A stretch of DNA of 64,000 nt from Bacteroidales bacterium (GTDB lineage Bacteria; Bacteroidota; Bacteroidia; Bacteroidales; VadinHA17), in NCBI GenBank assembly GCA_029932855.1, contig JAOZPG010000011.1, forward strand, positions 29,854 to 93,853, given 5' to 3'. Shown one piece after another: positions 5,673 to 58,264 of this stretch; within the stretch, counting starts at the first letter, position 1, and every line of letters starts with the position of its first letter. The notes below the pieces were generated by a model that was not told the DNA's origin, did no database searches, and worked only from the letters and a program-made list of their open reading frames with translations. The translations under genes and the position numbers were made by a program.

Positions 5673-6263
5673 ATGTCAGTTGATAAATTTAACATACTTG
5701 AATCAGCATTTGTGCCACTGCCGGTTGAAAATGTCGATACAGACCAGATAATTCCTGCCAGGTTTTTAAAAGCAACAGTGCGTGAAGGCTTTGGCGAGAA
5801 GCTGTTCATGGACTGGAGATATGATGAAGATGAAAAGGAAAAAGATGATTTTGTTCTAAATAACAAAAAGTATTCCGGAAGCATACTTGTCGCAGGAAGG
5901 AATTTCGGAAGCGGGTCAAGCAGGGAACATGCTGCCTGGGCTATATACGACTATGGCTTTAAGGTTGTGGTATCCAGCTTTTTTGCAGACATCTTTAAAA
6001 ATAATGCCCTTAATAATGGCTTATTACCGGTACAGGTATCTCCCGGCTTCCTTGAAGATCTCTTTATGGAAAACTCTAAAGATGCCGGGTGTATGCTAAG
6101 GATTGATCTTCCTGAACAGGAAATCACTATACTGAAAAACGGCAGAAAGGAAAAATTTGATATCAATCACTATAAAAAAGAATGCCTGCTAAATGGCTAT
6201 GATGATATTGATTACCTGTTAAGCATGAAAGAGAAGATACTTGAATTTGAAAAGAAACTCTAA
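5673..6263 (+). CDS. leuD: 3-isopropylmalate dehydratase small subunit
   Basis: 196 aa. Aconitase swivel-domain motif [16 protein letters not shown]. Confidence 0.9.
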
Positions 6264-6273
6264 ACCAGGGACC

Positions 6274-16910: not shown

Positions 16911-19217
16911 TTAAAACTGACTATTAAGATATTGCATTAATCCCTGCCCCTTAGTGCTTTGCGGATAGATGCTTAGTATCTTCTCTGCATATGGCCTTGC
17001 TTTTTCTATATCACCGGTCTTAATATAGTGGTCGGCCAGGGCATAAAGAAAATCTAAATTCCCGGGTTCCAGTGCAATGGCATTCAGCAGGTTTTTTTCA
17101 GCCGACTCATTATCCTTAAGGAACTGCTTAATAAGAGCAAGATTATAGAATATTCTTGCTCTGTCAGGCATTTTATTCCCTGCAATCTCAAGGTAGGTGG
17201 CAGCTTCTTCGTAATTATTCATTTCAGCCAGCAGTAGTGCAAGTGAATAATATGCTTCATGCACATCGGGGTGCTTTTCAGTAATATCGCGTAACAATGC
17301 TTCAGCCTGAGCATTATTTCCCATCTGGTTATAAAGGAGCGCAAGGTTCATCTTAGCCGGGAAGAACTGGTCGTCAATACGAATAGCCTCGCTGTAGTTG
17401 TCAACAGCTTTCTGAAACTCTCCTGTATTAGCATAATATATGCCCAGGTTATGCCTTCCCCCCGGGAAGTCAGCAGTATATTCCTGGCATTTAATATATT
17501 CCTCAATAACCTGCTTATAGCTTTTCTTATAACTTTTCTCAATTGCATCAGGTGGCAGGGCACTAAGCTTAAATGCAGCCGCAATGCGTACCGCCCTTAC
17601 CGGGTCATGAAGCATTTCACCAAGCTTCGCAGCATAATCATCCTGCGAAATCATAAAATAATATTGCACTCCTGCATGCCTCACTACTGCTTCCTGGTCG
17701 CTCATAGCCATTTCCAGAGCATCCAGACTTTTTTCATTGCCGTATGAGGCTATCTGCGAAAGAGCCGTTGACCTGACAACAGTCCCATACAGGTCGCTAT
17801 GAGCAATATCGATCAGTTCATCCAGTGTTTCAGGCAGATTTTCACCGGCCCGGGCAAAGATGCTGCCGTAATGAACTTTCCTGTTCTTGCCATACCACTC
17901 ATTTATCTTTTCTACAGCCCAGCCGGCAGATTCATCTTTATGACATCCGTTACATGCATTAGGAGTTCCATTGCTCAGACTAATATCGGGACGGGGTATT
18001 CTCATGCTATGATCCCTGCGAAAATCAACACCCATAAAATACTGTCCCGGCATATGACAACTCACACATAAGGCCCCTTCGCCAACATAAAAGGTAGTAT
18101 CCCCAAAGACCAGGTCCTCACCGGCCTCACCGGCATATTTATGAAAATGATGCTGGTATGTATCATATTCCACCTTTTTATGGCACTGCAGGCAAAGCTC
18201 ATTATCATCCAGCACCAGCTTCCCGCTGTGTACGTTATGACAATCATTACAACGGACATCATTATAATACATCCTGCTCTGCAAAAAGGAAGCATATACA
18301 TAGTCTTCCTCAAGTATCTGTCCGTCAACATGATAGAATGGCTCACTAATATTCTGCGGTATGAAGTAATCCAGCATGTCATCATATGAACCGGGAAAAT
18401 CGTCAAGTACAGATCTCCTGGCATGACAGCGTGCACATTGCTCAACATATTTCTTAGTTTCTATATTGCTTGTCTGCACAATGAGTCCGAAATTAGAATC
18501 CATGGGCCTTGCAATATCCGGGAGCTTTGCCCATTTTATATGTTCTTCCCCGGGTCCGTGACAGGCTTCACAACCCACATTAATATCCGACCACGTAGTA
18601 TGAAACTCATGACTTTCTATATCATAACCTTTCTTCAGGTCGGTAGAATGACAGTCAGCACACATGCCGTTCCAGTTCTGAGCGTTATTGGTCCAGTAGA
18701 GCCAGTCGTCCGGGTGAATATTCATTCCTGAATATATGGTATCAACCAGGTCGTACCACTCCCCTTTTTCCGTGTTCCAGGCCAGGTTAAGACATTGAAA
18801 CCTCCCATTTTCCATGGGAACGAGGTATTGTTGCAGGGGAGTATAACCAAAAGTATAGGCAAGCTGGTAATCATCCATTTTGCCATCTATACCGGCTGTA
18901 TGGACAAAGTACTTACCATCCCTGGTATAAAACCTGCTTGTTATTCCGGACTTACTTGTAAACCCGGCATTATTAAAATCTCCCAGTACTGTTTCGGCTA
19001 TGGCCGTATCCATGGCCCTGGCATGATCCGACTCCAGCCACAGGTCGTTTTCCAGCTTATGGCATTCAGTACATGATTCAGTTCCTGTATATGCTATCTC
19101 ATCATTGGTCTGCAATAAACGCTCCTGTGCCTCCCGGGAATGCCTTAGCACATATATGGGAAAGGATAGTATAATTACCAGACTGGCTACAAAAGCTGTT
19201 ATCTTCCGGTTATGCAT
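16911..19217 (-). CDS. Membrane-anchored octaheme c-type cytochrome fused to HEAT-like and TPR repeats
   Basis: N-terminal TM helix. Eight CXXCH motifs: CTECH, CADCH, CEACH, CARCH, CNDCH, CLQCH, CVSCH, CNGCH. These are followed by HEAT-like (AVVRHAGV, DPVRAVRIAAAFKL) and several TPR units (GIYYANTGEFQKAVDNYSEAIRID...). The start overlaps the Rieske stop (ATGCATAA). Confidence 0.8.
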   Translation of the reverse strand: MHNRKITAFVASLVIILSFPIYVLRHSREAQERLLQTNDEIAYTGTESCTECHKLENDLWLESDHARAMDTAIAETVLGDFNNAGFTSKSGITSRFYTRDGKYFVHTAGIDGKMDDYQLAYTFGYTPLQQYLVPMENGRFQCLNLAWNTEKGEWYDLVDTIYSGMNIHPDDWLYWTNNAQNWNGMCADCHSTDLKKGYDIESHEFHTTWSDINVGCEACHGPGEEHIKWAKLPDIARPMDSNFGLIVQTSNIETKKYVEQCARCHARRSVLDDFPGSYDDMLDYFIPQNISEPFYHVDGQILEEDYVYASFLQSRMYYNDVRCNDCHNVHSGKLVLDDNELCLQCHKKVEYDTYQHHFHKYAGEAGEDLVFGDTTFYVGEGALCVSCHMPGQYFMGVDFRRDHSMRIPRPDISLSNGTPNACNGCHKDESAGWAVEKINEWYGKNRKVHYGSIFARAGENLPETLDELIDIAHSDLYGTVVRSTALSQIASYGNEKSLDALEMAMSDQEAVVRHAGVQYYFMISQDDYAAKLGEMLHDPVRAVRIAAAFKLSALPPDAIEKSYKKSYKQVIEEYIKCQEYTADFPGGRHNLGIYYANTGEFQKAVDNYSEAIRIDDQFFPAKMNLALLYNQMGNNAQAEALLRDITEKHPDVHEAYYSLALLLAEMNNYEEAATYLEIAGNKMPDRARIFYNLALIKQFLKDNESAEKNLLNAIALEPGNLDFLYALADHYIKTGDIEKARPYAEKILSIYPQSTKGQGLMQYLNSQF

Positions 19218-19683
19218 AAGTTAAGTCGCTCTTTTCAAATTTTCTACGCCTGATCTTTTTATCCAGATCCACCATTACCTTACCTTCTTTTACAATCACC
19301 TTATAAGTATCCAGGGCATGGGGAGCCGGAGGCTTTAACACATCTCCAAAACGGTTAAACTCTGAAGAATGACATGGACAAATGAATTTATCCTCATCCT
19401 CATTCCAGTGGATTGAACAACCCAGATGAGTACATTTTAACGACAGAGCCAACATCCCCCCGTCGGAATGTCTTACAAGATATAGCCTGCCATTACTGTA
19501 AGGATATACCTCTCCTGGCTTGATATCTTCCAGGCGTCCTATCACCTTCAGCCGGTCGGAATTATGCCTCTCTCCCCTCTTCTTTCCCGAGACCAGGAAG
19601 GATAATGACAGTCCCAGGAACTCAATCCCTGCCACCACTCCTATCCATATCCATATCTTATTTAAAAAAGATCTTCTGTTCAT
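19210..19683 (-). CDS. Rieske [2Fe-2S] protein with twin-arginine signal/anchor
   Basis: MNRRSFLNKIW Tat motif plus a TM helix. Cluster-binding boxes CTHLGC and CPCHSSEF. Confidence 0.85.
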   Translation of the reverse strand: MNRRSFLNKIWIWIGVVAGIEFLGLSLSFLVSGKKRGERHNSDRLKVIGRLEDIKPGEVYPYSNGRLYLVRHSDGGMLALSLKCTHLGCSIHWNEDEDKFICPCHSSEFNRFGDVLKPPAPHALDTYKVIVKEGKVMVDLDKKIRRRKFEKSDLTYA

Positions 19684-19759
19684 TATTTTTATTTTTTGCC
19701 ATTTTATTATTTCTTTTTCATGTTCTCCCCTGCAGCCCGGCTACAAGCTAATATGAACT

Positions 19760-21094
19760 CTAACGCATCCATGGCCAACACAACTCCATCCCTTCTCCTC
19801 TAAACCATATTCCAATAAACATTAAAACCAGGTATGAGCTTATTATAAAGACAAATATCCCCTGTACAATCTCATTCATATTGTAATTTCCTTTCCTGCT
19901 TAGCCACAATACAAATAATGCCATTAAGAACAAGAACATAAAAAAGGGTATCAGTCCGTTTATAATAAAAGCCCTGACACCTGAAGATGCTTCCACCATG
20001 TCAGGTATCAATTCGCTGGCCAAAACCAGGACCGGCACAAGTAAAAGAGTAACTAAGGCAATCTTTTTACTCAATCTCTTTCCTTTATCCGAACTAAACC
20101 ATATCCCTGCCCTGTCTTCCCTGAACCTGAGAAAAGTAAGGCTGAACAATGAAATAATAAATAAGAAAGGAATAAGTATTGCAGCAAAAAAAGGATGTAA
20201 ATGCATAAGCAGCTCCTGGATTCCCATAAAATACCAGGGAGCCTTGGCAGGGTTGGGACTAAGGGCCGGATTGGCCCTCTCAAGCAATGGGACATTTCGC
20301 AAAGAACTTACAAGAAAAATCAGGGCAAGCAAAACCAGGGCAACAACAAATTCACGAGCAACAAGATTTGGATATACTTGCACCTTTTCAATGTCTTTAT
20401 CTCCTGCCCCACCAGGGATTACCACTCCACCTGCTTTTCGAACTTTCCAGAAGTGAAATGCCATCAGGATCACAATGCTTAAGGGAAATATCCCGGTATG
20501 GAAATTATAAAAATTCAAAAGAGTGATTGCGCCAACATCCTCCCCTCCACGAATTACAAGCATCAGCTTTTCTCCTATAAAGGGCAGGTAGTCAAGCATA
20601 CTGGTGGCTACTGTTACCGCCCAGAATGAAAGCTGGTCCCAGGGAAGCAGGTAACCGGAGAAATTTGAAAAAATAACCAGCAAGAGTAATACCACCCCTA
20701 TAATCCAGTTCCCCCTGCGGGGTGGTTTATAAGCTTCTGTAAATACTACCCTGAGCAAGTGAAAGAATACCAGCACAACCATCAGCATACCTGCAGTATG
20801 GTGAATATTCCTCACAAACTGTCCCATGAATACATCCTGCTGAATTGAAAGAATTGAATCATAAGCTTTTTCCGGGGATGGCTGGTACACAAATCTTAAA
20901 AGAATACCTGTAAAAGCCTGTAATACAAAAAGCAGGGCCAGCATACCTCCAAGTCCGAATGTATGATTAAAGGCTATACTCTTTTTTGGAATTCTCACAG
21001 GATGCAGGTGAAGCACAAGATTCCTGAATACCACGCCTGCATAAACTTTACTGCCTGTAAGAGAACTATTCACTTTTTGAGGATTCTGCTTCAT
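19760..21094 (-). CDS. Cytochrome b (fused b6 + subunit IV type) of a Rieske/cyt b complex
   Basis: 444 aa, polytopic. Heme-ligand His pairs in HHTAGMLMVVLVFFH and FHTGIFPLSIVILMAFH (14 residues between the His of the second pair, b6-like). The Qo-region motif reads KAPWYF in place of PEWY. Confidence 0.85.
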   Translation of the reverse strand: MKQNPQKVNSSLTGSKVYAGVVFRNLVLHLHPVRIPKKSIAFNHTFGLGGMLALLFVLQAFTGILLRFVYQPSPEKAYDSILSIQQDVFMGQFVRNIHHTAGMLMVVLVFFHLLRVVFTEAYKPPRRGNWIIGVVLLLLVIFSNFSGYLLPWDQLSFWAVTVATSMLDYLPFIGEKLMLVIRGGEDVGAITLLNFYNFHTGIFPLSIVILMAFHFWKVRKAGGVVIPGGAGDKDIEKVQVYPNLVAREFVVALVLLALIFLVSSLRNVPLLERANPALSPNPAKAPWYFMGIQELLMHLHPFFAAILIPFLFIISLFSLTFLRFREDRAGIWFSSDKGKRLSKKIALVTLLLVPVLVLASELIPDMVEASSGVRAFIINGLIPFFMFLFLMALFVLWLSRKGNYNMNEIVQGIFVFIISSYLVLMFIGIWFRGEGMELCWPWMR

Positions 21095-42501: not shown

Positions 42502-43236
42502 TTAAGAATTAGCTATTTCAGGGAAAAGCAGCTTTGCCTGGTCCAGGGAACCGGGTTTACCAATATCAAGCCATCTTGTATCATCATGTATATAGCACTT
42601 TATCTTTTCAGTCACGGCAAGATCGAGGTAAGCCGGGATAATGGAAAAGACCTTTTCTGAGGGAAGCTTCTTAAATATCCCGGTACTTATAAGCTGTATT
42701 CCCGAATAGGCCAATATCTCATGTTCTTTTTTCTCCGGTCTCGATATTATCTCATCTCCAGTTTTAATATTTCTCCAGCCAATCAGGTTTTGTTCCTTAT
42801 CAGTAATCAGGTAACGGACAGTATCCCTGTGCCTTACAGCCATTGTAGCCAGTGAAGAAGATTCCTGATGAGCTTTGATAAGCTCATCAAGGTCAAGGTC
42901 GGTAAGCACATCAACATTATATACAAGGAAAGGCTCCTCTCCTTCCAGGAACCAGGAAGCTTTTTTCAGAGCACCCCCTGTCTCCAGGAGCAATTCCCTC
43001 TCGTCAGAGATCTTAATATCAAGTCCGAAATTATTCTTTGACTCCAGGAAATCTATGATCTGCCCGGCAAAATGATGAACATTAACTATGATCTCTTTAA
43101 AACCATGGCCGGAAACTTTGCGAATGGCATTTTCCAGCATACTAATGCCATTGATCTTTACCAGGGCTTTAGGCGTATCACTGGTAAGCCTGCCCAGACG
43201 GGTTCCCTTGCCTGCCGCAAAGATCATTGCTTTCAT
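42502..43236 (-). CDS. Sugar-1-phosphate nucleotidyltransferase, MurU-like (MurNAc-1-P uridylyltransferase candidate)
   Basis: MKAMIFAAGKGTRLGRLTSDTPKALV nucleotidyltransferase motif. 244 aa. Lies 9 nt downstream of the AmgK-like kinase gene. Confidence 0.65.
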   Translation of the reverse strand: MKAMIFAAGKGTRLGRLTSDTPKALVKINGISMLENAIRKVSGHGFKEIIVNVHHFAGQIIDFLESKNNFGLDIKISDERELLLETGGALKKASWFLEGEEPFLVYNVDVLTDLDLDELIKAHQESSSLATMAVRHRDTVRYLITDKEQNLIGWRNIKTGDEIISRPEKKEHEILAYSGIQLISTGIFKKLPSEKVFSIIPAYLDLAVTEKIKCYIHDDTRWLDIGKPGSLDQAKLLFPEIANS

Positions 43237-43245
43237 GCTATAACA

Positions 43246-44676
43246 TTACTGAAGGAACTCCTGTTCCCTGTGTTTAAGTTCAATCTTAATACTGTATTTT
43301 TTCCTGAGTTCAGCAGCCAGGTATTCTGCAGCATAAACCGACCTGTGCCTGCCCCCTGTACAGCCATAACTAACCATCAGGCTTACGAATCCCCTTTCTA
43401 TGTAGTTCTCAATGGCATTTTCAACCAGCTTCTTTGTCTGCTTAAGAAAAAGCTTCATATCTTCCTGTTTATCCAGGAAGTCAATGACCTTGCGGTCTTT
43501 TCCTGTAAGCTCCCTGTACTCCTTATGCCTGCCGGGGTTATTAAGCCACCTGCAATCAAATACAAATCCTCCGCCATTACCTGTTTCATCAACGGGTATC
43601 CCTCTCTTATATGAAAAACTGTTAATCCTCAGTGTAAGATCTTTTTTCGACCGGGCTATCTGTTCAAGCTTTTTCGATTTTGTAAGCTGCAGCCAGGCTT
43701 GCTTCAGATGAGGAATATCCACAGGAAGCTCCTTGGTTAACAGGTATTTAAGGTTCTTAATTGCATAAGGAATACTTTGAAGGAAATGCTCCTTGCGTTC
43801 ATAAAAGCCCCTGAATCCATAGGCTCCCAGGGCCTGCATTATCCTGATAAGTACATAGCCATAATAATAGCCCTTAAACTTTTCTTCATCAAATTTTATG
43901 CTTTTCCCGGACTGCACGAGATAATATGTAAGCAATTCTTCGCGAACCTCTTCAGGAATATCAGCCTTGGCATCATAAAGCAGAGATGCAAGATCATACT
44001 GAAGTGCTCCTTTGCGGCCTCCCTGGTAATCAATAAAATAAGGCTCACCATCCATTAGCATTATATTCCGGGACTGAAAGTCGCGGTATAAGAAAAATTC
44101 CCTGTTAGACTCCAGCAGGAATTCTGCAAAAATATTAAAGTCATCCTCAAGCTTTTGCTCATCAAAACTAATTCCGGCAAGCTTTAAAAAATAATATTTG
44201 AAATAGTGAAGGTCCCACATCATGGATTGCTTATCGAAACTTGCCCTGGGATAACAATAATCATAATTTATTGCTTTGCCGGCCCTGTCCTGGAATATCA
44301 CCAGCTTATCAAGAACCTTCTTGTAAATGTTCTTTAAGTCTTCATTAAATCCAAACTGACTCCTGACCTGTGTGAGGTATGCATAAAGGGTAGTATTACC
44401 CAGGTCCTCCACCAGGTAAATATCCTGCTCCCTGTCCTCCTTAAGCACCTTAGGTACAGGCAGCCCTTTACTGTAAAATGTTTTTGTAAACTCAATAAAG
44501 GCCCGGTTTTCTTTAGAATCGGGATTAAAAACAGCTATCGCCCCCTTATTCTCACTCTCTATCCTGTAATACTCCCTGTTCGATCCGGATGGAGGTAATG
44601 CCTGGTACCTGACAGCCTGTTCTTTCGACCAACTCTCAAAAAGATCAATAAGTAACTGCTTCTTATCTTTTTGCAT
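43246..44676 (-). CDS. Fusion protein: AmgK-like (APH-fold) anomeric sugar kinase + RapZ/YvcJ C-terminal domain
   Basis: Residues ~20-330 form an APH-type kinase (FLYRDFQSRNIML catalytic loop, YFIDYQGG). Residues ~347-470 read LRINSFSYKRGIPVD...FVFDCRWLNNPGR...LTGKDRKVIDFL...SYGCTGGRHRSVYAAEYLA. This is co-linear with the E. coli RapZ C-terminal domain (FGFKHGIP.DADYVFDVRFLPNPHW...MTGLDKPV..FL...IGCTGGKHRSVYIAEQLA). Confidence 0.7.
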   Translation of the reverse strand: MQKDKKQLLIDLFESWSKEQAVRYQALPPSGSNREYYRIESENKGAIAVFNPDSKENRAFIEFTKTFYSKGLPVPKVLKEDREQDIYLVEDLGNTTLYAYLTQVRSQFGFNEDLKNIYKKVLDKLVIFQDRAGKAINYDYCYPRASFDKQSMMWDLHYFKYYFLKLAGISFDEQKLEDDFNIFAEFLLESNREFFLYRDFQSRNIMLMDGEPYFIDYQGGRKGALQYDLASLLYDAKADIPEEVREELLTYYLVQSGKSIKFDEEKFKGYYYGYVLIRIMQALGAYGFRGFYERKEHFLQSIPYAIKNLKYLLTKELPVDIPHLKQAWLQLTKSKKLEQIARSKKDLTLRINSFSYKRGIPVDETGNGGGFVFDCRWLNNPGRHKEYRELTGKDRKVIDFLDKQEDMKLFLKQTKKLVENAIENYIERGFVSLMVSYGCTGGRHRSVYAAEYLAAELRKKYSIKIELKHREQEFLQ

Positions 44677-44735: not shown

Positions 44736-45839
44736 TCATATCTTAATGAATATCTTTTTCCTGTATAGCAACCATCCTATGAACCAGAACAATAGACCGT
44801 GAAATGCAGCAAACATAAATGAGCCAAACATGTTGCCAAACAAGGGGGCAAATATAGTATTATATAGCCAGGTATATCCATTTACGGTCCCATCTCCTGA
44901 TGAAAAATGTATAATATATATTAGTGTCCTCGCCCATAATCCGGAAAGCACGTAAATAAACAAGGGGTTCATTCCATATACTATAAGAGGATGGGCCCAA
45001 CTCCTGAATTTATGAATATCGATCAGCCATACAAACAAGGCAAGCAAAGAAGATCCTATTCCCACAGTATATAATACATATGAGCTGGTCCAGATAGGCT
45101 TGTTTATCGGGAAATAAATATTCCAGAATAAGCCAAGCAGTATTCCTGCAATTCCAATAATCAACAGTTTCACCGGAAGTAACTTTTTGTTGGCTGCACC
45201 CGCAATAATCTCCCCAATCTGGTATCCCAGTATTACATTGACCATAGCCGGCAATGTGCTTAAGAGCCCCTCGGGATCAAAAGCTATTCCAAATCCTTTA
45301 TATATATGCTGGGCTCCCAGGATAAGTAAATCAATCTTTGTTACATAATTTGCCTCAAGCGAATACGGATCATCACCACCCAGGGCCCAAAGCAGAACCC
45401 AGTATCCAAACAAAATGCTGAATGCAAGGACCCATCTGGCCCATTTTTTCAGTAATAAAACCAGTACAGATGCAAATCCGTATGCCAGGGCTATTCGCTG
45501 CAAAACCCCCATTATTCGCAATTGCTCAAAATTGAAACGAGGAAAAGCATTCAGAAAGAGTCCTATTGCAAATATAAATACCGTCCTTTTTAATATCTTG
45601 ACAAAAGCATTTGTGCTCAGGCTATGATTATATTTACGGAAAGAATAATACATGGCAACCCCCACAATAAATAGGAAAAAAGGGAATACCAGATCGGTCG
45701 GAGTACAACCATGCCACTCTGAATGACGAAAAGGGGGATAAACATACTTCCAGCTTCCCGGGGTATTTACCACTATCATCAACATTATTGTAAGCCCCCT
45801 GAATGCATCAAGAGATATGAGGCGCTGACTTGCTTTCAT
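44736..45839 (-). CDS. HGSNAT-like / DUF5009 (NagX-type) polytopic membrane protein
   Basis: RLISLDAFRGLTIMLMIVVNTPGSW...HSEWHGCTPTDLVFPFFLFIVG parallels the heparan-alpha-glucosaminide N-acetyltransferase family signature. About 10-11 TM segments. Confidence 0.6.
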   Translation of the reverse strand: MKASQRLISLDAFRGLTIMLMIVVNTPGSWKYVYPPFRHSEWHGCTPTDLVFPFFLFIVGVAMYYSFRKYNHSLSTNAFVKILKRTVFIFAIGLFLNAFPRFNFEQLRIMGVLQRIALAYGFASVLVLLLKKWARWVLAFSILFGYWVLLWALGGDDPYSLEANYVTKIDLLILGAQHIYKGFGIAFDPEGLLSTLPAMVNVILGYQIGEIIAGAANKKLLPVKLLIIGIAGILLGLFWNIYFPINKPIWTSSYVLYTVGIGSSLLALFVWLIDIHKFRSWAHPLIVYGMNPLFIYVLSGLWARTLIYIIHFSSGDGTVNGYTWLYNTIFAPLFGNMFGSFMFAAFHGLLFWFIGWLLYRKKIFIKI

Positions 45840-45990: not shown

Positions 45991-46806
45991 ATGACAAAAA
46001 AAATAAATATCACTGAAGGCTCCTCAAAGTATGACGATCTCGACAAGATGACCATAAGGCAGCTGCTTACAAGTATCAATAATGAAGACCAGCTGGTACC
46101 CTTGGTAATAAAGAATGAAATTCCGGTAATTGAAAAAGTAGTTTCAAGAATAGTTAAAAACATGAAAGCCGGGGGCAAACTATTCTATCTCGGTGCCGGA
46201 ACAAGCGGCAGGCTGGGAATACTTGATGCATCGGAAATACCCCCCACATTCGGAGCCCCTTATGACCTCGTGATAGGACTGATCGCCGGCGGAGATGAAG
46301 CTATACGTAAGGCTGTGGAATCAGCCGAAGATGACTACGACCAGGCATGGAAAGACATGGAAGAATACCAGCCAGGTCCAAATGATTCAGTTGTGGGAAT
46401 AGCCGCTTCAGGAAGGACTCCTTATGTAATAGGCGGCGTGCAGACTGCAAAAAAACATGGCCTTTTTACTGCCTGTATCACAAATAATCCGGGCAGCGAG
46501 CTTGCCAAAAATGTTGATATAGCCATTGAAGTGGTGGTGGGACCGGAATTTGTTACAGGAAGTACAAGAATGAAGTCGGGAACAGCACAAAAATTTGTAT
46601 TGAATATGATAACCACCAGTACAATGATACAGCTGGGCAAGGTTAAGGGCAATAAGATGGTAGATATGCAGCTTACCAACATCAAACTGGTTGAAAGAGG
46701 AACAAAAATGATAATGGAAGAAACCGGCCTGGACAGGAAAGAATCAGAAAGGCTGCTATTACTGCATGGGTCCGTTAGAAGTGTATTAAAGGAATTACGA
46801 AAATAA
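45991..46806 (+). CDS. murQ: N-acetylmuramic acid 6-phosphate etherase
   Basis: SIS domain with GAGTSGRLGILDASEIPPTFG and IAASGRTPYV. 271 aa. Confidence 0.9.
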   Translation: MTKKINITEGSSKYDDLDKMTIRQLLTSINNEDQLVPLVIKNEIPVIEKVVSRIVKNMKAGGKLFYLGAGTSGRLGILDASEIPPTFGAPYDLVIGLIAGGDEAIRKAVESAEDDYDQAWKDMEEYQPGPNDSVVGIAASGRTPYVIGGVQTAKKHGLFTACITNNPGSELAKNVDIAIEVVVGPEFVTGSTRMKSGTAQKFVLNMITTSTMIQLGKVKGNKMVDMQLTNIKLVERGTKMIMEETGLDRKESERLLLLHGSVRSVLKELRK

Positions 46807-46815
46807 ATCTTTATC

Positions 46816-49401
46816 ATGTTAAAGAATACATTAAGCAGGCTGGTACTCACCAGCCTTATTGCTTTTCATCTTATTAATTCATACCCGCAGCAAAACATCC
46901 CGGAGACTGATATGCAATGGGTGGACTCGGTATTCAGGACACTTAAGCTTGAAGAACAGATCTCTCAGCTTATAATTGTGGACAGCTATTCCGACAGGGA
47001 TATCAATCATGAAGCAGAGCTGACAAGCTTAATCAGAAACAATAAAATAGGCGGACTCTTTTTCCACAAGGGCTCTCCTTCAAAGCAGGTGGTATTATCT
47101 GACTTTTATCAGTCCCAGTCTAAAATACCGCTTATTATGGCTATGAATCCTGACCCCCGGCCAGGGAATCTGACTATGGCTGCTGTAAAAAATGACAGCC
47201 TGATATACATGGCCGGAAAAGAACAGGGCAGAAAGTTTTGCAGGCTGGGCATACAATTATGTCTTACAGAAGCCACCGATACCTGGAGTAAGAAAAAGGA
47301 AGGCCTGTATATTATGGCTATGCAAAGCGAAAAAATATTCTATGATACAACACTATCCCGTTCCCTTGCAGCCGTGAAAGAACCGGAAAAAATAACTGAT
47401 CATATATTATCCTCTGTAAATTATCTTGTATCATCCCCGCAGAATGTAAACAAACTAATAGCAGGCATAAAAAATGCTGTTTTCAGTGGACAAATATCAC
47501 GACAGGTATTGGAGAAACAATGCAGGAAGGCACTTGCCGCCAAAGCATCTCCTGGCTTTTCCGGGAGGGAAAAGATTAATGAAAAAGAATTATTAAGTGA
47601 TCTGAACAATACAGGATCCAGGATACTTATCAGAAAGTTGTTAAAAGAGTCTATCACTGTTTTAAATAATTACGGCAGTATAATTCCTGTAAAAAACCTT
47701 GGTACATGCAGAATAGCCAGCCTCTCAATCGGAGATGATAAACTGCCTCATTACTATAAAATGCTTGATAAGTACAGCCGTATAGATCATTATGACTGGG
47801 ATCCGGAAACACAGGATTTCTCAGATCTGCTTAGATCCCTGGAAGGATACGATCTTCTGATTACGGGGATAAGTCTTTCCGGGTGTAAAGATCACAACTT
47901 GCAGCCGGTTTACAGCCTTATAAGCGACAGCCTGTCAATAATACAGGATTCGCTTAATACCATAATCAGCATATTTGGAGAGCCCTTCATTTTAAATGAT
48001 TTACATGGCATTGATAAAGCCGGCGGACTACTATTGACTTACGAGGATAGCAGGCTGGCACAGGAAATGGCAGCACAGCTAATCTTTGGAGCCATAGCTG
48101 CCAGGGGAAGCCTGCCCCTCAACATTAATAAGAATTATACTAAAGGATATGGTTTGGAAACAAATGAATTATCCAGGCTTGGCTTTGCCATTCCCGAAGA
48201 GGTGGGACTTGATTCAAAAAAACTTAATAATACAATAGACTCAATTGCCATGCTGGGACTAAATGCAGGGGCCTACCCGGGCTGCCAGGTCCTGGTTGCA
48301 AGAAATGGAAAAATAGTTCTGCACAAAACATATGGCTACCATACTTATGAAAACAGAAATCCTGTTAATAAAAATGATATTTACGATTTTGCATCTGTAA
48401 CAAAGATAACAGGGACTCTGCCTGCCCTGATGAGACTGGTTGATGAGGGAAAAATCGATATTGATGATAAGCTAAGTAAGTACTGGCCGGATTTTAAACA
48501 TTCAAATAAATCAGAACTGAGCATCAGGGAGATTCTTGCCCACCAGTCAGGAATGATACCATATATCAAGTTCTGGGAAAAAACATTAAAGAAAAACGGG
48601 ACTTATAAGACTAGGATATTTAAACATGATTCTTCTGAGAAATTTTGCGATCCGGTGGCGGCCGGCCTATATATGAATAAGAACTACAGGAAAAAAATGT
48701 ATAAGGAAATCAAAAGGTCTCCTGTATCTGAAGAAAAAAAATATGTTTACTCGGGACTTAGCTTCTACCTCTATCCTCAGATAATTGAGAACTTAAGCGG
48801 CAGTAATTATGAGACTTATGTTAAAACTAATATATACAGGCCTCTTGGAGCATACAGCCTTACATATACACCATCATACCATTTTCCCCTGCAACAGATA
48901 ATACCTACCGAGTATGATAGCTTTTTCAGGCATATGCAGCTGCACGGATATGTTCATGATGAAGGGGCAGCAATGATGGGAGGTGTATCAGGAAATGCAG
49001 GTCTTTTTGGCAAGGCAGTTGACCTGGCTAAACTTATGGATATGTATCTCAACATGGGTTATTATGGCGACAAGCAGTTTATATCGGAAAAGACCATGAG
49101 AGAATTTACGGCATACCAGTACCCCGACAATAATAACAGACGTGGACTGGGATTTGATAAGCCTAAAGTTAATAACAGGGAGCTTCCTGCTGAGGAGCAA
49201 TACCCTACTGGCAGTGTATCCGCATCAAGTTTTGGCCATTCCGGTTATACAGGAACATTTACCTGGGTGGATCCTGAGGAACAAATATTACTGGTGTTTC
49301 TCTCAAACAGGGTTTACCCAACCAGAAATAATAGCTTATTATACAAAATGAATATCAGGCCGGCAATTCTTGAATCTATATATTCGTCTATCATACAATA
49401 A
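46816..49401 (+). CDS. Exported fusion: GH3 (NagZ)-like N-terminal domain + beta-lactamase-fold serine hydrolase (AmiE-like)
   Basis: Signal peptide. The N-terminal half is co-linear with the GH3 N-domain (KIGGLFFHKG...IPLIMAMNPD...). The C-terminal half has S-x-x-K (ASVTK, 48394-48405), YSGLSF and GHSGYTG motifs of class-C-like beta-lactamase/esterase folds. Confidence 0.65.
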   Translation: MLKNTLSRLVLTSLIAFHLINSYPQQNIPETDMQWVDSVFRTLKLEEQISQLIIVDSYSDRDINHEAELTSLIRNNKIGGLFFHKGSPSKQVVLSDFYQSQSKIPLIMAMNPDPRPGNLTMAAVKNDSLIYMAGKEQGRKFCRLGIQLCLTEATDTWSKKKEGLYIMAMQSEKIFYDTTLSRSLAAVKEPEKITDHILSSVNYLVSSPQNVNKLIAGIKNAVFSGQISRQVLEKQCRKALAAKASPGFSGREKINEKELLSDLNNTGSRILIRKLLKESITVLNNYGSIIPVKNLGTCRIASLSIGDDKLPHYYKMLDKYSRIDHYDWDPETQDFSDLLRSLEGYDLLITGISLSGCKDHNLQPVYSLISDSLSIIQDSLNTIISIFGEPFILNDLHGIDKAGGLLLTYEDSRLAQEMAAQLIFGAIAARGSLPLNINKNYTKGYGLETNELSRLGFAIPEEVGLDSKKLNNTIDSIAMLGLNAGAYPGCQVLVARNGKIVLHKTYGYHTYENRNPVNKNDIYDFASVTKITGTLPALMRLVDEGKIDIDDKLSKYWPDFKHSNKSELSIREILAHQSGMIPYIKFWEKTLKKNGTYKTRIFKHDSSEKFCDPVAAGLYMNKNYRKKMYKEIKRSPVSEEKKYVYSGLSFYLYPQIIENLSGSNYETYVKTNIYRPLGAYSLTYTPSYHFPLQQIIPTEYDSFFRHMQLHGYVHDEGAAMMGGVSGNAGLFGKAVDLAKLMDMYLNMGYYGDKQFISEKTMREFTAYQYPDNNNRRGLGFDKPKVNNRELPAEEQYPTGSVSASSFGHSGYTGTFTWVDPEEQILLVFLSNRVYPTRNNSLLYKMNIRPAILESIYSSIIQ

Positions 49402-52680: not shown

Positions 52681-53889
52681 ATGAGCAATATGCACAGGCC
52701 TGAAGATATTATGCTTATTGGTATAGACGGGGGGGCTTCAAAAGTAAGTGGCTGGCTGGTTGAACTGGATATAAAGTCCGGACTGTTCAGTATGGCTAAT
52801 GTGAATGTTGAAAAAAGGTATATGGACTATGAGGGATATAACGATGCTTTTGTTCCTGTTGACCTGAACACCCAGTTAGTTGAGATGAATTCCCATATTC
52901 ATCTGCAGGAAGATGAAAAGAAGCAGGGCTATTTTTACAAAAAAGCAGCAGCAGATGTTATTTCAGAATTACTGCAAAACGGAAAAGATAAATTAGTGCT
53001 TGTCGGAATTGGAATGCCCGGCTTAAAGACCAAAGACATGAGGGGCATCTCTGTTTTGGCAAATGGTCCCAGGATGCCTGACTACTCAGACTTCATAGAA
53101 GAAGAACTGGCAGGAAAAGGTTTGATGCTGGGAGCTCCTATTGCACACCTCGGAAGTGATGCCGACTATTGCGGACTTGGAGAGGAACATTCCGGATCAG
53201 GGCTGTTCAGGGATGTTGAAAATGCATATTACTTTGGTGGAGGAACAGGTGTGGCAGATGCTATGAAACTGAAAGGAAAACTGATAAGTTTTGACCAGTC
53301 TAAGAGCTGGATAGCCAAATCATGGGAAATGATGAGTACAAAAACAAGATCCTTTGAATTTTATACTTCGGCTTCCGGTATCCAGAAATTATACAGCTAC
53401 TACAGCAAAATAAGCCTGACAGACCTGAACAAAAACCGGATATACCCAATGCAGATACTGGAAAAAGCACTGAATAATGAAGAGGCTGCATTTCTTACAA
53501 TAAAAGATCTTAGCGATAAGCTGGCCCTCCTGCTGTTTGAAAGAATTACTACAATCTATTCAGGCTGGTCAGATGTCTTTTCTTTTGTCAATCCTGACAA
53601 GGAAAAACCACTTAGTGATCATAAATACAAAGGCAGTCTTCTCGACAGGATAATTATAGGACAACGACTGGGCGACCTGCTGGAAAGATCTAAAGATACA
53701 GACCTCTTATACAATGATATAAAGAAACAGTTGGGAGATATGATCATAAACACCGGAGATAAAAAGCTCATATCGCATTTCTTAAGAGCCAGGTCATTCA
53801 GGAGTGAAATACTTCGTATATCCAAACTACGGGAAGCCCCTGCCCTGGGTGCAGGAATAGACGCATTCTTAAGTCATAAAAAATACTAA
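52681..53889 (+). CDS. BadF/BadG/BcrA/BcrD-type ATPase; MurNAc/GlcNAc kinase (MurK-like) candidate
   Basis: ASKHA phosphate-1 motif LIGIDGGASKVSGW, plus GIGMPG and FGGGTGVADA. 402 aa. Located in the MurNAc salvage operon. Confidence 0.6.
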   Translation: MSNMHRPEDIMLIGIDGGASKVSGWLVELDIKSGLFSMANVNVEKRYMDYEGYNDAFVPVDLNTQLVEMNSHIHLQEDEKKQGYFYKKAAADVISELLQNGKDKLVLVGIGMPGLKTKDMRGISVLANGPRMPDYSDFIEEELAGKGLMLGAPIAHLGSDADYCGLGEEHSGSGLFRDVENAYYFGGGTGVADAMKLKGKLISFDQSKSWIAKSWEMMSTKTRSFEFYTSASGIQKLYSYYSKISLTDLNKNRIYPMQILEKALNNEEAAFLTIKDLSDKLALLLFERITTIYSGWSDVFSFVNPDKEKPLSDHKYKGSLLDRIIIGQRLGDLLERSKDTDLLYNDIKKQLGDMIINTGDKKLISHFLRARSFRSEILRISKLREAPALGAGIDAFLSHKKY

Positions 53890-53892
53890 ATC

Positions 53893-55266
53893 ATGTTAAT
53901 ACCAGGAATCATTCCTGATAAGGAACCTGTACTCAGGGTAGGAATAATCCTTCCCGAAGACAGGAAGACTACAATATTTCTGGATATCCATGAACCCGGC
54001 TCCTGCCATATAGAACTCGACAATAAGAAAAGTAACCTTCCCGGAACAGGAAAGCTTAAACTGGAATTAAGAGAAAATATTATCAGCCTTTCAGTACCGG
54101 AACCCACAAGCGGGCTAAGTGCAGATAAGGAACAGGAAAACAAGCATTGCCACAAAGTAAAGCTCAGGCAGGAAAAACCCGACAGCTATGTTATGGTAAA
54201 TGATGTGCCTGCCGGAAGGGGTTTTCACTGGCTCAAGGAAATAGCTGTCAAGCTTCCCGGCAGCATTGAGATAGATATCAAAAAAGGATTCCTGTGCCTG
54301 ACTAACGAGCTACCTCTGGAAACATACCTTGCCTGCGTTGCCACCTCAGAGATGAGTGCAGAAAGTCCTGCGTCATTCATTGAGGCCCAGACAATTGCAG
54401 CCAGGTCATGGATGCTGGCAAATGTTGAGCGTAAGCATGTGGAGCTCGGATTTGATGTATGTAATGATGATTGTTGCCAAAGATACCAGGGCGTAAATAA
54501 TATCACCAGGACTTCAATTGAAGGAGCAGCAAGAACCAGGGGCCAGGTGCTAATGTGGAAAGATACAATCTGTGATGCCAGGTACTCGAAATCATGCGGT
54601 GGCATAATGGAAAAGTTCGAGAACTTATGGGATGGGGATCCCCTCCCCTATATGCAGAATATTGCCGATGGCCCGGGAGAATTTAATATTGACCTGACAC
54701 GCGAGGATGATATGAGAGAATGGGTCAGCCAGGTCCCTGAAACATATTGCAGTCCACACTATATTCCTGAAAACCAGCTTAAAAAGTATATGGGCAAAGT
54801 GGATGAAGAAAGTAATTATTTCAGATGGGAAAAGAAAGTAAGCCAGGAAGAACTGTGTGTCAATCTTAATAATAAACTTGATATTGATGCAGACAAAGTA
54901 GTCTCTCTTACTCCACTGAAAAGAGGAGGAAGCGGCAGGCTGCTTGAACTTGAAATAAAGTATCTCAGCAAAGAAGGCAAAACAATATCAATGATCATTG
55001 AAAAAGATTACGAAGTCCGCAGGCTGCTTCATAAAGACTTCCTTTTCAGCTCAGCCATAATAATCGAAGAACTGTATGCAGATCAAACTAATATCCATGT
55101 ATCAGAAATAAAAGTTCCGGCTGCTTTTATTTACAAGGGAGCAGGCTGGGGACATGGAGCAGGCATGTGCCAGATTGGAGGCATAGGGATGTCACTTAAA
55201 GGCCACAGTGCTGAAGAAATAGTGTCACACTATTACCCTGGGGCGGAATTAAAGAAAATCTATTAA
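53893..55266 (+). CDS. SpoIID/LytB domain protein
   Basis: YLACVATSEMSAESPASFIEAQTIAARSW, CNDDCCQRYQG, ARYSKSCGG and GAGWGHGAGMCQIGGIGMS are the conserved SpoIID blocks. Confidence 0.8.
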   Translation: MLIPGIIPDKEPVLRVGIILPEDRKTTIFLDIHEPGSCHIELDNKKSNLPGTGKLKLELRENIISLSVPEPTSGLSADKEQENKHCHKVKLRQEKPDSYVMVNDVPAGRGFHWLKEIAVKLPGSIEIDIKKGFLCLTNELPLETYLACVATSEMSAESPASFIEAQTIAARSWMLANVERKHVELGFDVCNDDCCQRYQGVNNITRTSIEGAARTRGQVLMWKDTICDARYSKSCGGIMEKFENLWDGDPLPYMQNIADGPGEFNIDLTREDDMREWVSQVPETYCSPHYIPENQLKKYMGKVDEESNYFRWEKKVSQEELCVNLNNKLDIDADKVVSLTPLKRGGSGRLLELEIKYLSKEGKTISMIIEKDYEVRRLLHKDFLFSSAIIIEELYADQTNIHVSEIKVPAAFIYKGAGWGHGAGMCQIGGIGMSLKGHSAEEIVSHYYPGAELKKIY

Positions 55267-55290
55267 CTCAACCATTAGAAAGAGAAAAGT

Positions 55291-56958
55291 ATGAGCAACT
55301 CAGGAAATAACAAGAGATCTCCATGGTCATGGATACCCTCGCTCTATTTTGCCGAGGGAATACCCTATATCATTGTGATGTTCGTTGCCAGCGACATGTT
55401 TAAAACACTTGGTGTCTCCAACAGCAAGCTGGCCTTTTGGACCAGTATATTATACCTGCCATGGGTAATAAAACCATTTTGGAGTCCATTTATTGATATC
55501 TATTATACAAAACGTAAATGGATAGTATGGATGCAGCTGGGACTGGCTCTGTCATTCTTCGGCGTCTCCCTGTCACTGCAAACACCCTGGTGGTTCACAT
55601 TAAGCCTTGCCTTCCTGTGGCTCATGGCCCTTGAATCCTCTACCCACGACATTGCTGCCGATGGTTTTTACATGCTTGCCCTGAATGAACATAAGCAGGC
55701 TTTTTTCAGTGGTATAAGATCTACCTTTTACCGTATGGCAATGATTGCCGGGCTGGGACTTCTTGTAATTTTAACCGGACTAATACTCGATAAAACGGGA
55801 CTTGAAACAGTAAGTATAGAGATTGAGTTGAGTGAGCAGCCTGCTATGCTTGAAACCTTCGATATAAACAACATTTCTATTGAAGCTACAGGCGGTGAGA
55901 CTCCAAAGATACTTCATTACCCTGAAAAGGTGCAGCTTAACCTGGATAAGACAGGCCAGGCTGATTCAACAATAATCTACTTTGTATTATCTGCCCCCCC
56001 CGGAGAAGATGAAGAGATAAAGATGAATTTCGGACATAAAAAAGGGAGCAAGGACATATACCTGGCCAGCAATGGTAATTTTGTATTTACCAGCGAGAAC
56101 TGGAACATCCCCGTATCGGCTGTGATAAAATATAAACCGGGTATTAAGGAAGCTACAAAGGCAAGTTTTGATGCCAAGGCAGGAAATGTTCCTTTTAGCT
56201 GGGCTGTTTCAATAGGCTTCCTGGGATTATTGTTCCTGGTATTCGCCATCTATCATAGTTTCATTCTTCCCCGCCCTGAAGCAGGTGAAAAGAAAACTAA
56301 GCGGTCAGATGCCTCATACTGGCATGTTTTAAAAACATTCTTCACTAATAAAGATATTGTTCCTGCAATTGCCTTCCTCCTCTTTTACCGCTTTGCTGAA
56401 TCCCAGCTTTCAAAGATGGCTTCTCCCTTCCTGCTTGATACAAGGGAAAACGGGGGACTGGCCCTTTCCCTTACCGAAAAAGGAGTCGCCTATGGAACGG
56501 TCGGACTAATAGCTTTGCTGATAGGTGGTGTACTTGGTGGCATACTTGCTTCAAAACACGGATTAAAGAAATGGATATGGTGGATGGCTGTGGGCATTAA
56601 CCTGCCAAACCTGGTTTATATATTCCTGTCATATGCACAACCTGATAATTTTGTTATCGTTAATATATGCATAGCCATAGAACAATTCGGATATGGATTT
56701 GGATTTACGGCATACATGCTTTACATGTTATACATTTCAGGACAAGGAGAATATAAGACTGCCCATTTTGCAATTACTACCGGCTTTATGGCCCTGGGGA
56801 TGATGATACCCGGAATGATAAGTGGTACCATACAGGAAGCCCTGGGTTACCAGCACTTTTTCATTTACGTTATCATGTGTACCATTCCAAGCTTTATCGC
56901 CCTGTGGTTTGTTAAAATAGATCCGGCCTTTGGCATAAAAAAGAAACATGCAAACTAA
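55291..56958 (+). CDS. ampG: AmpG-family MFS muropeptide permease with ~135-aa extra-membrane insert
   Basis: N-terminal YFAEGIPYIIV, WSPFID and THDIAADGFY blocks are typical of AmpG. A hydrophilic insert (residues ~167-302, nt 55789-56196) lies between TM5 and TM6. Confidence 0.7.
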   Translation: MSNSGNNKRSPWSWIPSLYFAEGIPYIIVMFVASDMFKTLGVSNSKLAFWTSILYLPWVIKPFWSPFIDIYYTKRKWIVWMQLGLALSFFGVSLSLQTPWWFTLSLAFLWLMALESSTHDIAADGFYMLALNEHKQAFFSGIRSTFYRMAMIAGLGLLVILTGLILDKTGLETVSIEIELSEQPAMLETFDINNISIEATGGETPKILHYPEKVQLNLDKTGQADSTIIYFVLSAPPGEDEEIKMNFGHKKGSKDIYLASNGNFVFTSENWNIPVSAVIKYKPGIKEATKASFDAKAGNVPFSWAVSIGFLGLLFLVFAIYHSFILPRPEAGEKKTKRSDASYWHVLKTFFTNKDIVPAIAFLLFYRFAESQLSKMASPFLLDTRENGGLALSLTEKGVAYGTVGLIALLIGGVLGGILASKHGLKKWIWWMAVGINLPNLVYIFLSYAQPDNFVIVNICIAIEQFGYGFGFTAYMLYMLYISGQGEYKTAHFAITTGFMALGMMIPGMISGTIQEALGYQHFFIYVIMCTIPSFIALWFVKIDPAFGIKKKHAN

Positions 56959-58264
56959 TAGTTTTACATATAAAATGATCAATAAAGTATTTCTATCCCG
57001 GATGGCTATGTTATCATTGGCTTTAATGACTGTAATCCCGGCCATGCCTGCCTGCCGGGCCGCTAACATCATAGGGCCTGCTTTGTCACAAACCAAAGTT
57101 AAAACAGGCATAGAGGTCCTCAGGGAAGATGGCTTTAAGATTCTGCAGGGCAAAAAAGTAGGTCTTATCACTAACCAGACAGGGGTTGACAGTAAACTAA
57201 GAACTACAATAGACATACTTTATAATGCTCCGGGCCTTGAGCTGGTAGCCCTGTTTGGTCCCGAACACGGGGTAAGGGGAGATTCTCCTGCAGGAGAATA
57301 TGTTGAATCATATACTGATGAAAAGACGGGACTTCCTGTTTACTCACTCTATGGAAAAACCAGGAAGCCAACTGAGAAAATGCTTGAAGGCATTGATGTT
57401 CTGGTATATGATATTCAGGATATTGGAGTACGTTCATACACCTATATAAGTACCATGGGCTATACCATGGAAGCAGCAGCGCAGCATGGTATAGAATATG
57501 TAGTACTGGACAGACCCAACCCCCTTGGAGGATATAAGATTGAAGGCTCCCCGGTTAAGGAAGGATTCTTTTCAATGGTAAGTGCCTACCCTATTCCATA
57601 CGTTTATGGCCTTACATGTGGTGAACTGGCAAAATTATATGTTGAAGAAAAACTCTTAAACAGCCAAAAGAGATGCAATCTGAGTGTTGTGGCAATGAAG
57701 GGCTGGCATAGAAACATGAATTATAAGGATACAGGACTGCCCTGGGTACTGTCATCTCCACACCTGCCAAATCCTGAGACTGCTGCGGCTTATGTTGCAA
57801 CAGGAGTAATGGGTGAGCTGTTCGTATTTTCTGAAGGTGTAGGATATACCCTCCCTTTCCAGCTCTATGCTGCCGAATGGATAGATCAGTTCAAGCTGGC
57901 AGAAGCAATGAATGATCTCGGCATGGAAGGTGTTATGTTCAGGCCACTGCAGTTTAAACCATACTACGGAAGGGACAAGGCTAAAGAACTGCACGGAGTA
58001 CAGATATATATAAGCGATGCTGCTAAAGTAAACCTTATGTCTCTTCAATTCAGGTTTATGGAGGTTCATCATAATTTATACCCCGGTATAGATGTACTTG
58101 AACTGTCGAAAAAAAGGCATAATATGTTTGATAAGGTTACCGGGTCATCTGAAATAAGGGAAACTTTCTTTAAGAATTATCTCTATGACGATATTAAGGA
58201 ACTACTGAATGAAGGTGTAGATGAGTTCAGACAGATCTCAAAACAATATTATCTGTATAAGTAA
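56948..58264 (+). CDS. namZ: DUF1343 protein, exo-beta-N-acetylmuramidase (NamZ/YbbC-like)
   Basis: KVGLITNQTGVD, FGPEHG, DIQDIGVR and VLDRPNP blocks of DUF1343. Signal-anchor/lipoprotein-like N-terminus. Overlaps ampG by 11 nt; later in-frame Met codons exist. Confidence 0.75.
   Translation: MQTNSFTYKMINKVFLSRMAMLSLALMTVIPAMPACRAANIIGPALSQTKVKTGIEVLREDGFKILQGKKVGLITNQTGVDSKLRTTIDILYNAPGLELVALFGPEHGVRGDSPAGEYVESYTDEKTGLPVYSLYGKTRKPTEKMLEGIDVLVYDIQDIGVRSYTYISTMGYTMEAAAQHGIEYVVLDRPNPLGGYKIEGSPVKEGFFSMVSAYPIPYVYGLTCGELAKLYVEEKLLNSQKRCNLSVVAMKGWHRNMNYKDTGLPWVLSSPHLPNPETAAAYVATGVMGELFVFSEGVGYTLPFQLYAAEWIDQFKLAEAMNDLGMEGVMFRPLQFKPYYGRDKAKELHGVQIYISDAAKVNLMSLQFRFMEVHHNLYPGIDVLELSKKRHNMFDKVTGSSEIRETFFKNYLYDDIKELLNEGVDEFRQISKQYYLYK

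Follow-up and report, generated by a model that had tools for sequence, protein, structure and literature searches.

A fusion gene in a 64,000-nucleotide (nt) stretch of Bacteroidales DNA, hereafter the window, encodes a protein in which an AmgK-like sugar kinase is joined to a domain of the type that forms the C terminus of the RNase adaptor RapZ. A gene for a MurU-like sugar-1-phosphate uridylyltransferase lies directly downstream. This two-domain fusion is the standard form of the kinase across a group that includes Bacteroidota, Calditrichota, Ignavibacteria, and Marinimicrobia, and in some Bacteroidales all three activities are carried by one chain. The fused kinase as a whole elaborates the AmgK–MurU salvage module in a way that is genuine, common, and so far unstudied. 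The kinase–RapZ_C–MurU triple fusion is the new element of this work: it was not foreseen in a preliminary description of the locus made from the DNA letters alone, and it is the strongest functional evidence available to us. We lean toward the view that the RapZ-type domain is a dimerizing module that binds a phospho-sugar or UDP-sugar and serves the AmgK–MurU route, and that it is not an RNA adaptor.

Domain Composition of the Fusion Protein

The open reading frame (ORF), on the minus strand at 43246–44676, encodes 476 amino acids (aa), and all residue numbers below refer to this product unless E. coli is named. The fusion gene and the gene that follows it are composed of four elements:

43687–44676, minus strand: AmgK-like APH-fold sugar kinase domain, residues ~1–330 (Pfam APH, NCBIfam AmgK models, PDB entry 3csv)
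43249–43686, minus strand: helical linker and RapZ-type C-terminal domain (CTD), residues 331–476 (PapZ_C, RapZ profile, CTD model)
43246–43248, minus strand: TAA stop codon that ends the fusion gene; 9 nt then separate it from murU (sequence read directly)
42502–43236, minus strand: MurU-like sugar-1-phosphate uridylyltransferase, 244 aa (Pfam NTP_transferase; NCBIfam MurU, E 1.2e-38)

The preliminary description had read this ORF as an APH kinase followed by a RapZ C-domain, and Pfam, NCBIfam, and PDB searches agree with that reading. Pfam APH matches residues 29–262 (E 2.8e-12). Pfam PapZ_C (PF22740, the RapZ C-terminal domain) matches residues 348–472 (E 7e-36, 123.5 bits vs. a gathering score of 27), which assigns the C-terminal part of the protein to the RapZ C-domain family; the domain extends over about residues 345–472. 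A phmmer search of PDB sequences aligns residues 331–471 to residues 144–278 of Escherichia coli RapZ (E 5e-19) and residues 29–304 to 3csv, an alphaproteobacterial structural-genomics entry that is annotated just as a putative aminoglycoside phosphotransferase and that we infer to be AmgK-like. The RapZ model PRK05416 is covered only at its positions 144–277 of 278, with 116.1 bits vs. an equivalog cutoff of 244. We found no P-loop (Walker A/B) N-domain of RapZ in the fusion protein: both the profile match and the PDB alignment begin at RapZ position 144, and the N terminus has the APH fold. The claim that a kinase occupies the place of the usual P-loop domain therefore stands.

The top NCBIfam matches of the kinase part are two AmgK models (E 3.5e-18 and 5.4e-14), with scores that fall short of the equivalog cutoffs (65.8 bits vs. 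550 for NF045759 and 52.2 bits vs. 500 for NF045698). By the NCBI criterion, and judged from these profile scores, the protein is a distant relative of AmgK and not an equivalog. MurU is likewise the top NCBIfam match of the downstream ORF, at 133 bits vs. an equivalog cutoff of 250. The kinase catalytic motifs YRDFQSRN (catalytic D199 and N204) and IDYQGG (D216, the metal-binding Asp) are invariant in the family alignment, and phosphorylation of N-acetylmuramic acid (MurNAc) or N-acetylglucosamine (GlcNAc) at C1 is the predicted activity. The C-domain consists of a pocket loop (G438-C-T-G-G-x-H-R-S-V447), an FDCR strand (D374, C375, and R376), an NPG element ending in G382, a Gly-rich insert at residues 364–370, and a tail that is not basic. 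All three sequence blocks quoted in the preliminary description are present (SFSYKRGIP, FDCRWLNNP, and GCTGGRHRSV), with the small difference that the first has the form FxYxxGxP, not FxFxxGxP.

Predicted Structure

An AlphaFold2 model of the full-length protein, built from a 26-sequence alignment, contains two confident domains (mean predicted local distance difference test [pLDDT] score 88.2, predicted template modeling [pTM] score 0.72). A Foldseek comparison of this model with the PDB ranks 3csv at the top (target TM 0.79), ahead of APH, choline-kinase, and methylthioribose-kinase folds. The model of the CTD alone (residues 331–476; pLDDT 89.2, pTM 0.83) superposes on the C-domain of E. 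coli RapZ in the 1.17 Å crystal structure 5o5s with a target TM of 0.92 and a root-mean-square deviation of 1.7 Å over 128 columns, at 38% identity, which assigns to it the phosphofructokinase-like fold of the PapZ_C domain. RapZ entries alone were significant in the Foldseek search with the CTD model; phosphofructokinases appeared at E ~0.5, and the search of the PDB returned no protein tyrosine phosphatase (PTP), low-molecular-weight (LMW) PTP, ArsC, or other phosphatase fold. In the AlphaFold2 models, the C439-x5-R445 loop is located at a strand–loop–helix junction, between a strand at residues 432–439 and a helix at residues 445–460.

Distribution and Authenticity of the Fusion

A search of a collection of 5.8 billion proteins produced at least 8000 scored candidates, and the best 120 matches all carry both Pfam domains; nearly all are ~475 aa long, with a few truncated or extended forms at 390–540 aa. 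When each GTDB species was represented by a single genome, at least 586 genomes proved to encode a relative, and the best 80 loci were examined in detail. Each of these 80 loci has the fusion as a single uninterrupted ORF (median 477 aa). The taxa named include Bacteroidota (Marinilabiliales, Prolixibacteraceae, Cytophagia, Saprospiraceae, and others), Calditrichota, Ignavibacteria/Chlorobiota, and Marinimicrobia/Fidelibacterota. The best identity to the window protein among the 80 loci is 61%, and a 76%-identical protein is labeled "Bacteroidota bacterium." The fusion, which the preliminary description had seen in a single genome and proposed for a taxonomic survey, is thus not peculiar to that genome.

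A frameshift or an assembly error that artificially joins two genes can be dismissed with near certainty. We found nothing in favor of such an artifact, and the same uninterrupted ORF in 80 of 80 independent loci, together with thousands of protein clusters, excludes it; the linker between the two domains is in addition confidently modeled as helices.

Pfam-based annotation and NCBI names already capture the two-domain architecture, and family members are listed as "phosphotransferase," "RapZ C-terminal domain-containing protein," or "RNase adapter RapZ." The last of these names is unjustified given the score of 116 bits against a cutoff of 244, the absence of the P-loop N-domain, and the absence of the RNA-binding tail; the entries that carry it are misleading and due for correction. 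As a name in NCBI nr it is found, for example, on P0004, P0095, P0066, and P0096, probably as a propagating over-annotation. Among the papers searched, we found none that joins AmgK with RapZ, or RapZ/YvcJ/YhbJ with Bacteroidota, and the papers on AmgK that we read mention no extra domain.

Coupling to MurU

The MurU-like gene begins exactly 9 nt downstream of the fusion gene (TAA tgttatagc ATG), as the preliminary description had stated, and is probably translationally coupled to it. No terminator-like site was found in the 9-nt gap. A promoter and terminator scan gave counts at background, using a sigma-70 consensus that is not suited to Bacteroidota. In 43 of the 80 two-domain loci, the gene that immediately follows the fusion on its strand encodes a MurU homolog, with gaps of 9–370 nt, and a 44th homolog is found ~5.8 kb from the fusion.

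The association goes further in a subset of the relatives. When the C-domain alone was searched with HMMER against 1.84 billion cluster representatives, it yielded 3539 relatives, 234 of them at E ≤ 1e-30, and seven of the best 150 combine APH, PapZ_C, and NTP_transferase in one chain of 714–768 aa. When a triple fusion is used as the query, nearly all of the 120 best clusters share the triple architecture, and those that are named come from metagenome-assembled genomes of Bacteroidaceae and Muribaculaceae, in which the triple fusion is common. Two of the triple-fusion genes were located on their contigs:

P0190/L081, 406–2712: continuous gene for a 768-aa triple fusion, checked on the DNA
P0320/L082, 6001–8256: continuous gene for a 751-aa triple fusion, with the same neighbors on at least 24 contigs

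Fused and split forms seem to coexist among close relatives, because one 90% cluster mixes triple fusions with stand-alone NTP-transferase entries of 243 aa from NCBI. We found no P-loop RapZ N-domain joined to this type of CTD among RapZ-length proteins, which are truncated fusions or one-off chimeras. The adjacency of murU, the triple fusions, and the consistent absence of the P-loop N-domain lead us to conclude that the RapZ-type domain belongs to the AmgK–MurU module.

Several side observations concern this collection. Further triple-fusion proteins are P0153, P0182, P0195, P0209, P0242, and P0260, and the size range of the kind is about 715–790 aa. One-off architectures that contain the CTD type, which are probably truncations or assembly chimeras, combine it with HEAT repeats (P0266, 570 aa), a GH92 fragment (P0162, 293 aa), a GT1 fragment (P0142, 298 aa), an HSP70 fragment (P0227, 279 aa), or a 3'-5' exonuclease together with APH (P0197, 718 aa). 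In loci without an adjacent murU, among them several from Prolixibacteraceae and Draconibacterium within L014–L080, two genes often flank the fusion: upstream and divergent, a gene of ~240 aa (17 loci) whose sequence resembles the DUF218/YdcF-ElyC type, and downstream, a putatively YebC-like gene of ~236 aa (13 loci).

Conservation of the RapZ-Type Domain

In the E. coli RapZ pocket, H190, T248, G249, H252, and R253 hold sulfate or malonate with C247 beside them; the pocket lies on the path of the RNA backbone and is the proposed site of glucosamine-6-phosphate (GlcN6P) (PMC5737377, PMC9841335). The isolated CTD binds GlcN6P with a KD of ~10 nM (PMC7073468), and H190A, G249W, R253A, T248D, K170A, C247A, and even C247S are inactive (PMC5737377, PMC9841335). 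The conservation pattern described here comes from an alignment of the E. coli RapZ sequence with 341 distinct C-domains from the fused family. C439, T440, G441, G442, H444, and R445, which correspond to E. coli C247, T248, G249, G250, H252, and R253, are kept in every one of the 341 members, as are D374 (the E. coli dimer residue D182), R376 (R184), N380, and P381. At the position of H190 all 341 members have a glycine (G382). Five of the six residues of the pocket set (H190, T248, G249, H252, R253, and C247) are therefore invariant and the sixth has been replaced by an invariant Gly, a pattern that suggests a pocket retained but rebuilt, and the pocket appears to be under strong selection.

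Other positions are characteristic of the fused family. R428 (99%; N236 in E. coli) and F430 (98%; R238) are near-invariant, C375 (V183) is an invariant second cysteine of the C-domain, and a near-invariant Gly-rich insert (consensus SGNGGG, G368–G370) follows the position of E. coli D176. These residues probably cluster around the same pocket, given that E. coli I175, N236, and S239 are described as pocket neighbors (PMC9841335). The basic RNA-binding tail of E. coli (RxRxKNxQxRHRTxxKRK) is absent: the window protein ends in LKHREQEFLQ, and 77 family members carry an average net charge of −0.3 over their final 15 residues vs. about +5 for the E. coli tail.

Proposed Role of the RapZ-Type Domain

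From the observed domain identities, fold, conservation pattern, gene linkage, and fusions, we infer a role that includes ligand binding, the identity of the ligand, and regulation or channeling by its binding. In this proposal, the AmgK-type anomeric MurNAc/GlcNAc kinase and the MurU-like uridylyltransferase would turn salvaged cell-wall sugar into UDP-sugar. The RapZ-type domain would keep homodimerization and a pocket for phosphate or phospho-sugar at C439-x5-R445 and would have lost the enterobacterial role as RNA adaptor. Because the pocket is rebuilt with family-specific residues, its ligand is probably a phosphorylated amino sugar or UDP-sugar of the pathway, for which MurNAc-1P, UDP-MurNAc, MurNAc-6P, and GlcN6P are candidates. 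Binding may tune the kinase, by feedback or feed-forward, or may hold the sugar-1-phosphate between the kinase and MurU. The preliminary description had suggested that the fusion couples salvage to a module that senses amino-sugar flux; we favor the same general idea.

Several points weigh against this proposal. The gene for MurU is not adjacent in 37 of the 80 loci. The AmgK and MurU matches are far below their equivalog cutoffs, such that the substrate specificity presumed here rests on homology and context. The nearness of the family-specific residues to the pocket and any contact of the CTD with the active site of the kinase are read across from published work on the E. coli protein. A catalytic domain would fit an invariant pocket just as well, and the suggested role is drawn from comparative evidence.

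Were the domain a structural dimerization or scaffold module only, without its own ligand and perhaps with a docking role for MurU, the place that it takes in the triple fusions, flanked by the kinase and MurU, would fit a linker or scaffold. The E. coli CTD alone forms tight dimers for which D182 is required (PMC7073468, PMC5737377), and the equivalent D374 is invariant. However, a scaffold would not need a C-T-G-G-x-H-R-S loop that is 100% conserved, nor G382, R428, and F430 across phyla, and because it leaves the invariant pocket unexplained we consider a pure scaffold unlikely. The pocket would be explained if the domain were catalytic, a Cys-dependent phosphatase or phosphotransferase acting through C439-x5-R445-S446 and, for example, replacing MupP as a MurNAc-6P phosphatase; the protein would in that case combine a 6-phosphatase with a 1-kinase and direct MurNAc-6P into the anabolic route through MurU. 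The invariant C-x5-R-S motif is found at a strand–loop–helix junction, an arrangement that Cys-phosphatases have in their phosphate-binding loops; C375 supplies a second invariant, family-specific cysteine; and MurQ, a consumer of MurNAc-6P, is encoded divergently nearby. In E. coli, the inactivity of C247S as well as C247A and a pocket density that resembles a chemically transformed product of GlcN6P accompany the suggestion of the authors that the C247 thiol may have a specialized catalytic function (PMC9841335), and phosphatase activity has been reported for Bacillus subtilis YvcJ (PMC7525490). Against these observations, the fold search with the CTD gives RapZ alone as significant and none of the PTP, LMW-PTP, or ArsC folds, a general-acid residue was not identified, and a place between AmgK and MurU does not specifically require a 6-phosphatase; we judge a catalytic domain decidedly unlikely. 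A bolder version, which we regard as a long shot, holds that the RapZ C-domain is at root a Cys-dependent sugar-phosphate enzyme that here dephosphorylates MurNAc-6P and passes MurNAc to the kinase and then to MurU. If this were true, an enzyme of two or three activities would take recycled cell-wall sugar straight to UDP-MurNAc, and both the C247S phenotype and the "chemically transformed" GlcN6P density of E. coli would be explained.

The preliminary description had also allowed for an RNA- or protein-binding adaptor. An RNA adaptor as in E. coli RapZ would link a small RNA (sRNA), an mRNA, or an RNase to salvage. Several basic surface residues that contact GlmZ in E. coli are kept or conservatively replaced, namely K357 (K170), R376 (R184), R388 (R196), and R443 (K251), and the pocket residues that touch the RNA backbone are conserved. 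Nevertheless, RNA binding in E. coli needs the basic C-terminal tail, which is missing here and is not conserved even in Bacillus YvcJ, a protein for which there is no evidence of RNA binding (PMC7525490). The histidine whose substitution in H190A abolishes GlmZ processing (PMC9841335) is an invariant Gly in the family, and the P-loop N-domain required for the tetramer that matches the GlmZ repeats (PMC5737377) is absent from the fusion. The Rosetta-stone fusions, moreover, indicate enzymes and not RNA. No GlmY/GlmZ system is known in the phylum group of the fused family, and an RNA adaptor is, in our estimation, highly improbable. A dimerizing, sugar-ligand-binding module of the AmgK–MurU route is the reading that we retain.

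Gene Neighborhood in the Window

The context of the fusion gene is peptidoglycan salvage, as seen from the genes upstream of it:

44736–45839, minus strand: NagX-like polytopic membrane protein whose gene precedes the fusion gene by 59 nt (E 1.1e-45 to the NCBIfam NagX model, short of the equivalog cutoff)
45991–46806, plus strand: MurQ, MurNAc-6-phosphate etherase, divergent (PRK05441, 362 bits, and TIGR00274, 302.6 bits, both above cutoff)
46816–49401, plus strand: PBP4B-like serine hydrolase of 861 aa that adjoins murQ, with the beta-lactamase fold in its C-terminal half
53893–58264, plus strand: second peptidoglycan-salvage block, composed of a SpoIID-domain protein, a 555-aa major facilitator superfamily (MFS) transporter that is possibly AmpG-like, and the exo-beta-N-acetylmuramidase NamZ

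MurQ represents the catabolic branch for the same sugar, MurNAc-6P. The NagX-like and MurQ neighbors accompany the fusion in none of the 80 other loci, and their linkage is thus lineage-specific. The N-terminal ~460 residues of the PBP4B-like protein match no Pfam family at E ≤ 0.01. A MurF-like ligase and an alanine racemase are encoded on the opposite side of the fusion gene. A Pfam scan of all ORFs of at least 150 aa within the 64-kb window found neither a stand-alone rapZ nor glmS.

Other parts of the window deserve brief mention. The second salvage block is preceded by an LpxD-like gene, a GT2 gene, and a gene for a 402-aa protein without a Pfam match (52681–53889). At 9358–11509 (plus strand), the gene for an RpiR/MurR-type regulator (HTH_6 and SIS) overlaps the 5' end of a gene for an MFS sugar transporter, and the two could form a further amino-sugar uptake unit. 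A respiratory module at 16911–21094 (minus strand), unusual for a Bacteroidota-like genome, encodes a 768-aa protein with multihaem cytochrome c motifs, HEAT repeats, and TPR repeats, followed by Rieske and cytochrome b genes. Two paralogous HMGL-like synthases of the LeuA/CimA type (2673–4187 and 6241–7785, plus strand) are encoded in one branched-chain amino-acid operon with the order ilvB fragment, ilvN, ilvC, leuA, leuCD, second leuA-like gene, and leuB.

Implications

The RapZ C-domain is known almost wholly as an enterobacterial RNA adaptor, and many bacteria are without GlmY/GlmZ. Here the domain is welded to two enzymes of peptidoglycan-sugar salvage in a large bacterial group that includes Bacteroidaceae and Muribaculaceae of the human gut, which is comparative evidence that an older, more general job of the domain lies in amino-sugar metabolism. 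The fused enzymes offer a simple system for finding its ligand or activity. The AmgK/MurU route provides UDP-MurNAc independently of MurA, which is the basis of fosfomycin tolerance in Pseudomonas and of MurNAc auxotrophy in Tannerella; AmgK/MurU pairs of Bacteroidota serve as tools for metabolic labeling of the cell wall. A regulatory or catalytic domain that had gone unrecognized in these enzymes would have consequences for that biology as well as for those tools.

Comparison with Known Systems

The resemblance of the RapZ-type domain to the Cys-phosphatases, with their CX5R P-loop, is limited to the motif and its strand–loop–helix setting and does not extend to the fold. MupP, the HAD-family MurNAc-6P phosphatase of Pseudomonas, acts in the same pathway by supplying free MurNAc to AmgK; it performs the step that a catalytic RapZ-type domain would take over, with an unrelated fold and chemistry.

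YvcJ of B. subtilis and Rv1421 of Mycobacterium tuberculosis are, like the fusion, RapZ homologs from outside the enterobacteria that have no RNA tail and no known RNA role, and they are tied to UDP-GlcNAc and peptidoglycan-precursor metabolism. The preliminary description had merged two proteins under the name GlmR/YvcJ: GlmR is YvcK, which activates GlmS, whereas YvcJ is the RapZ homolog (PMC7525490). Nor is UDP-GlcNAc binding a trait of the C-domain, as had been implied, since it is lost in the Walker-A mutant K22A of YvcJ (PMC7525490). The UDP-sugar site of YvcJ, like that of Rv1421, is thus in the Walker-A N-terminal domain, which is absent from the fusion, and the partner of these proteins is GlmR (YvcK) and not AmgK or MurU.

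E. coli RapZ (YhbJ) senses GlcN6P and acts as RNase E adaptor for the sRNA GlmZ; the fusion shares with it a superposable C-domain in which the pocket residues C247, T248, G249, H252, and R253 and the dimer residue D182 have conserved equivalents. The fusion comes from a different phylum group and, unlike RapZ, has neither the P-loop N-domain nor the basic tail, H190 is replaced by Gly, and a Gly-rich insert and the additional conserved residues C375, R428, and F430 are present.

The kinase part has its counterpart in AmgK of Pseudomonas putida and Pseudomonas aeruginosa; homologs from Caulobacter, Legionella, and Tannerella forsythia have also been studied. The APH fold, the xRDxxxxN and IDxQ motifs, and the AmgK models as top NCBIfam matches are common to both, and the fusion gene likewise directly precedes a gene for a MurU-like enzyme, in a neighborhood of peptidoglycan recycling. 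In contrast to AmgK, the fusion protein is longer by ~145 residues, which form the RapZ-type C-domain, and in some Bacteroidales it is fused to MurU as well.

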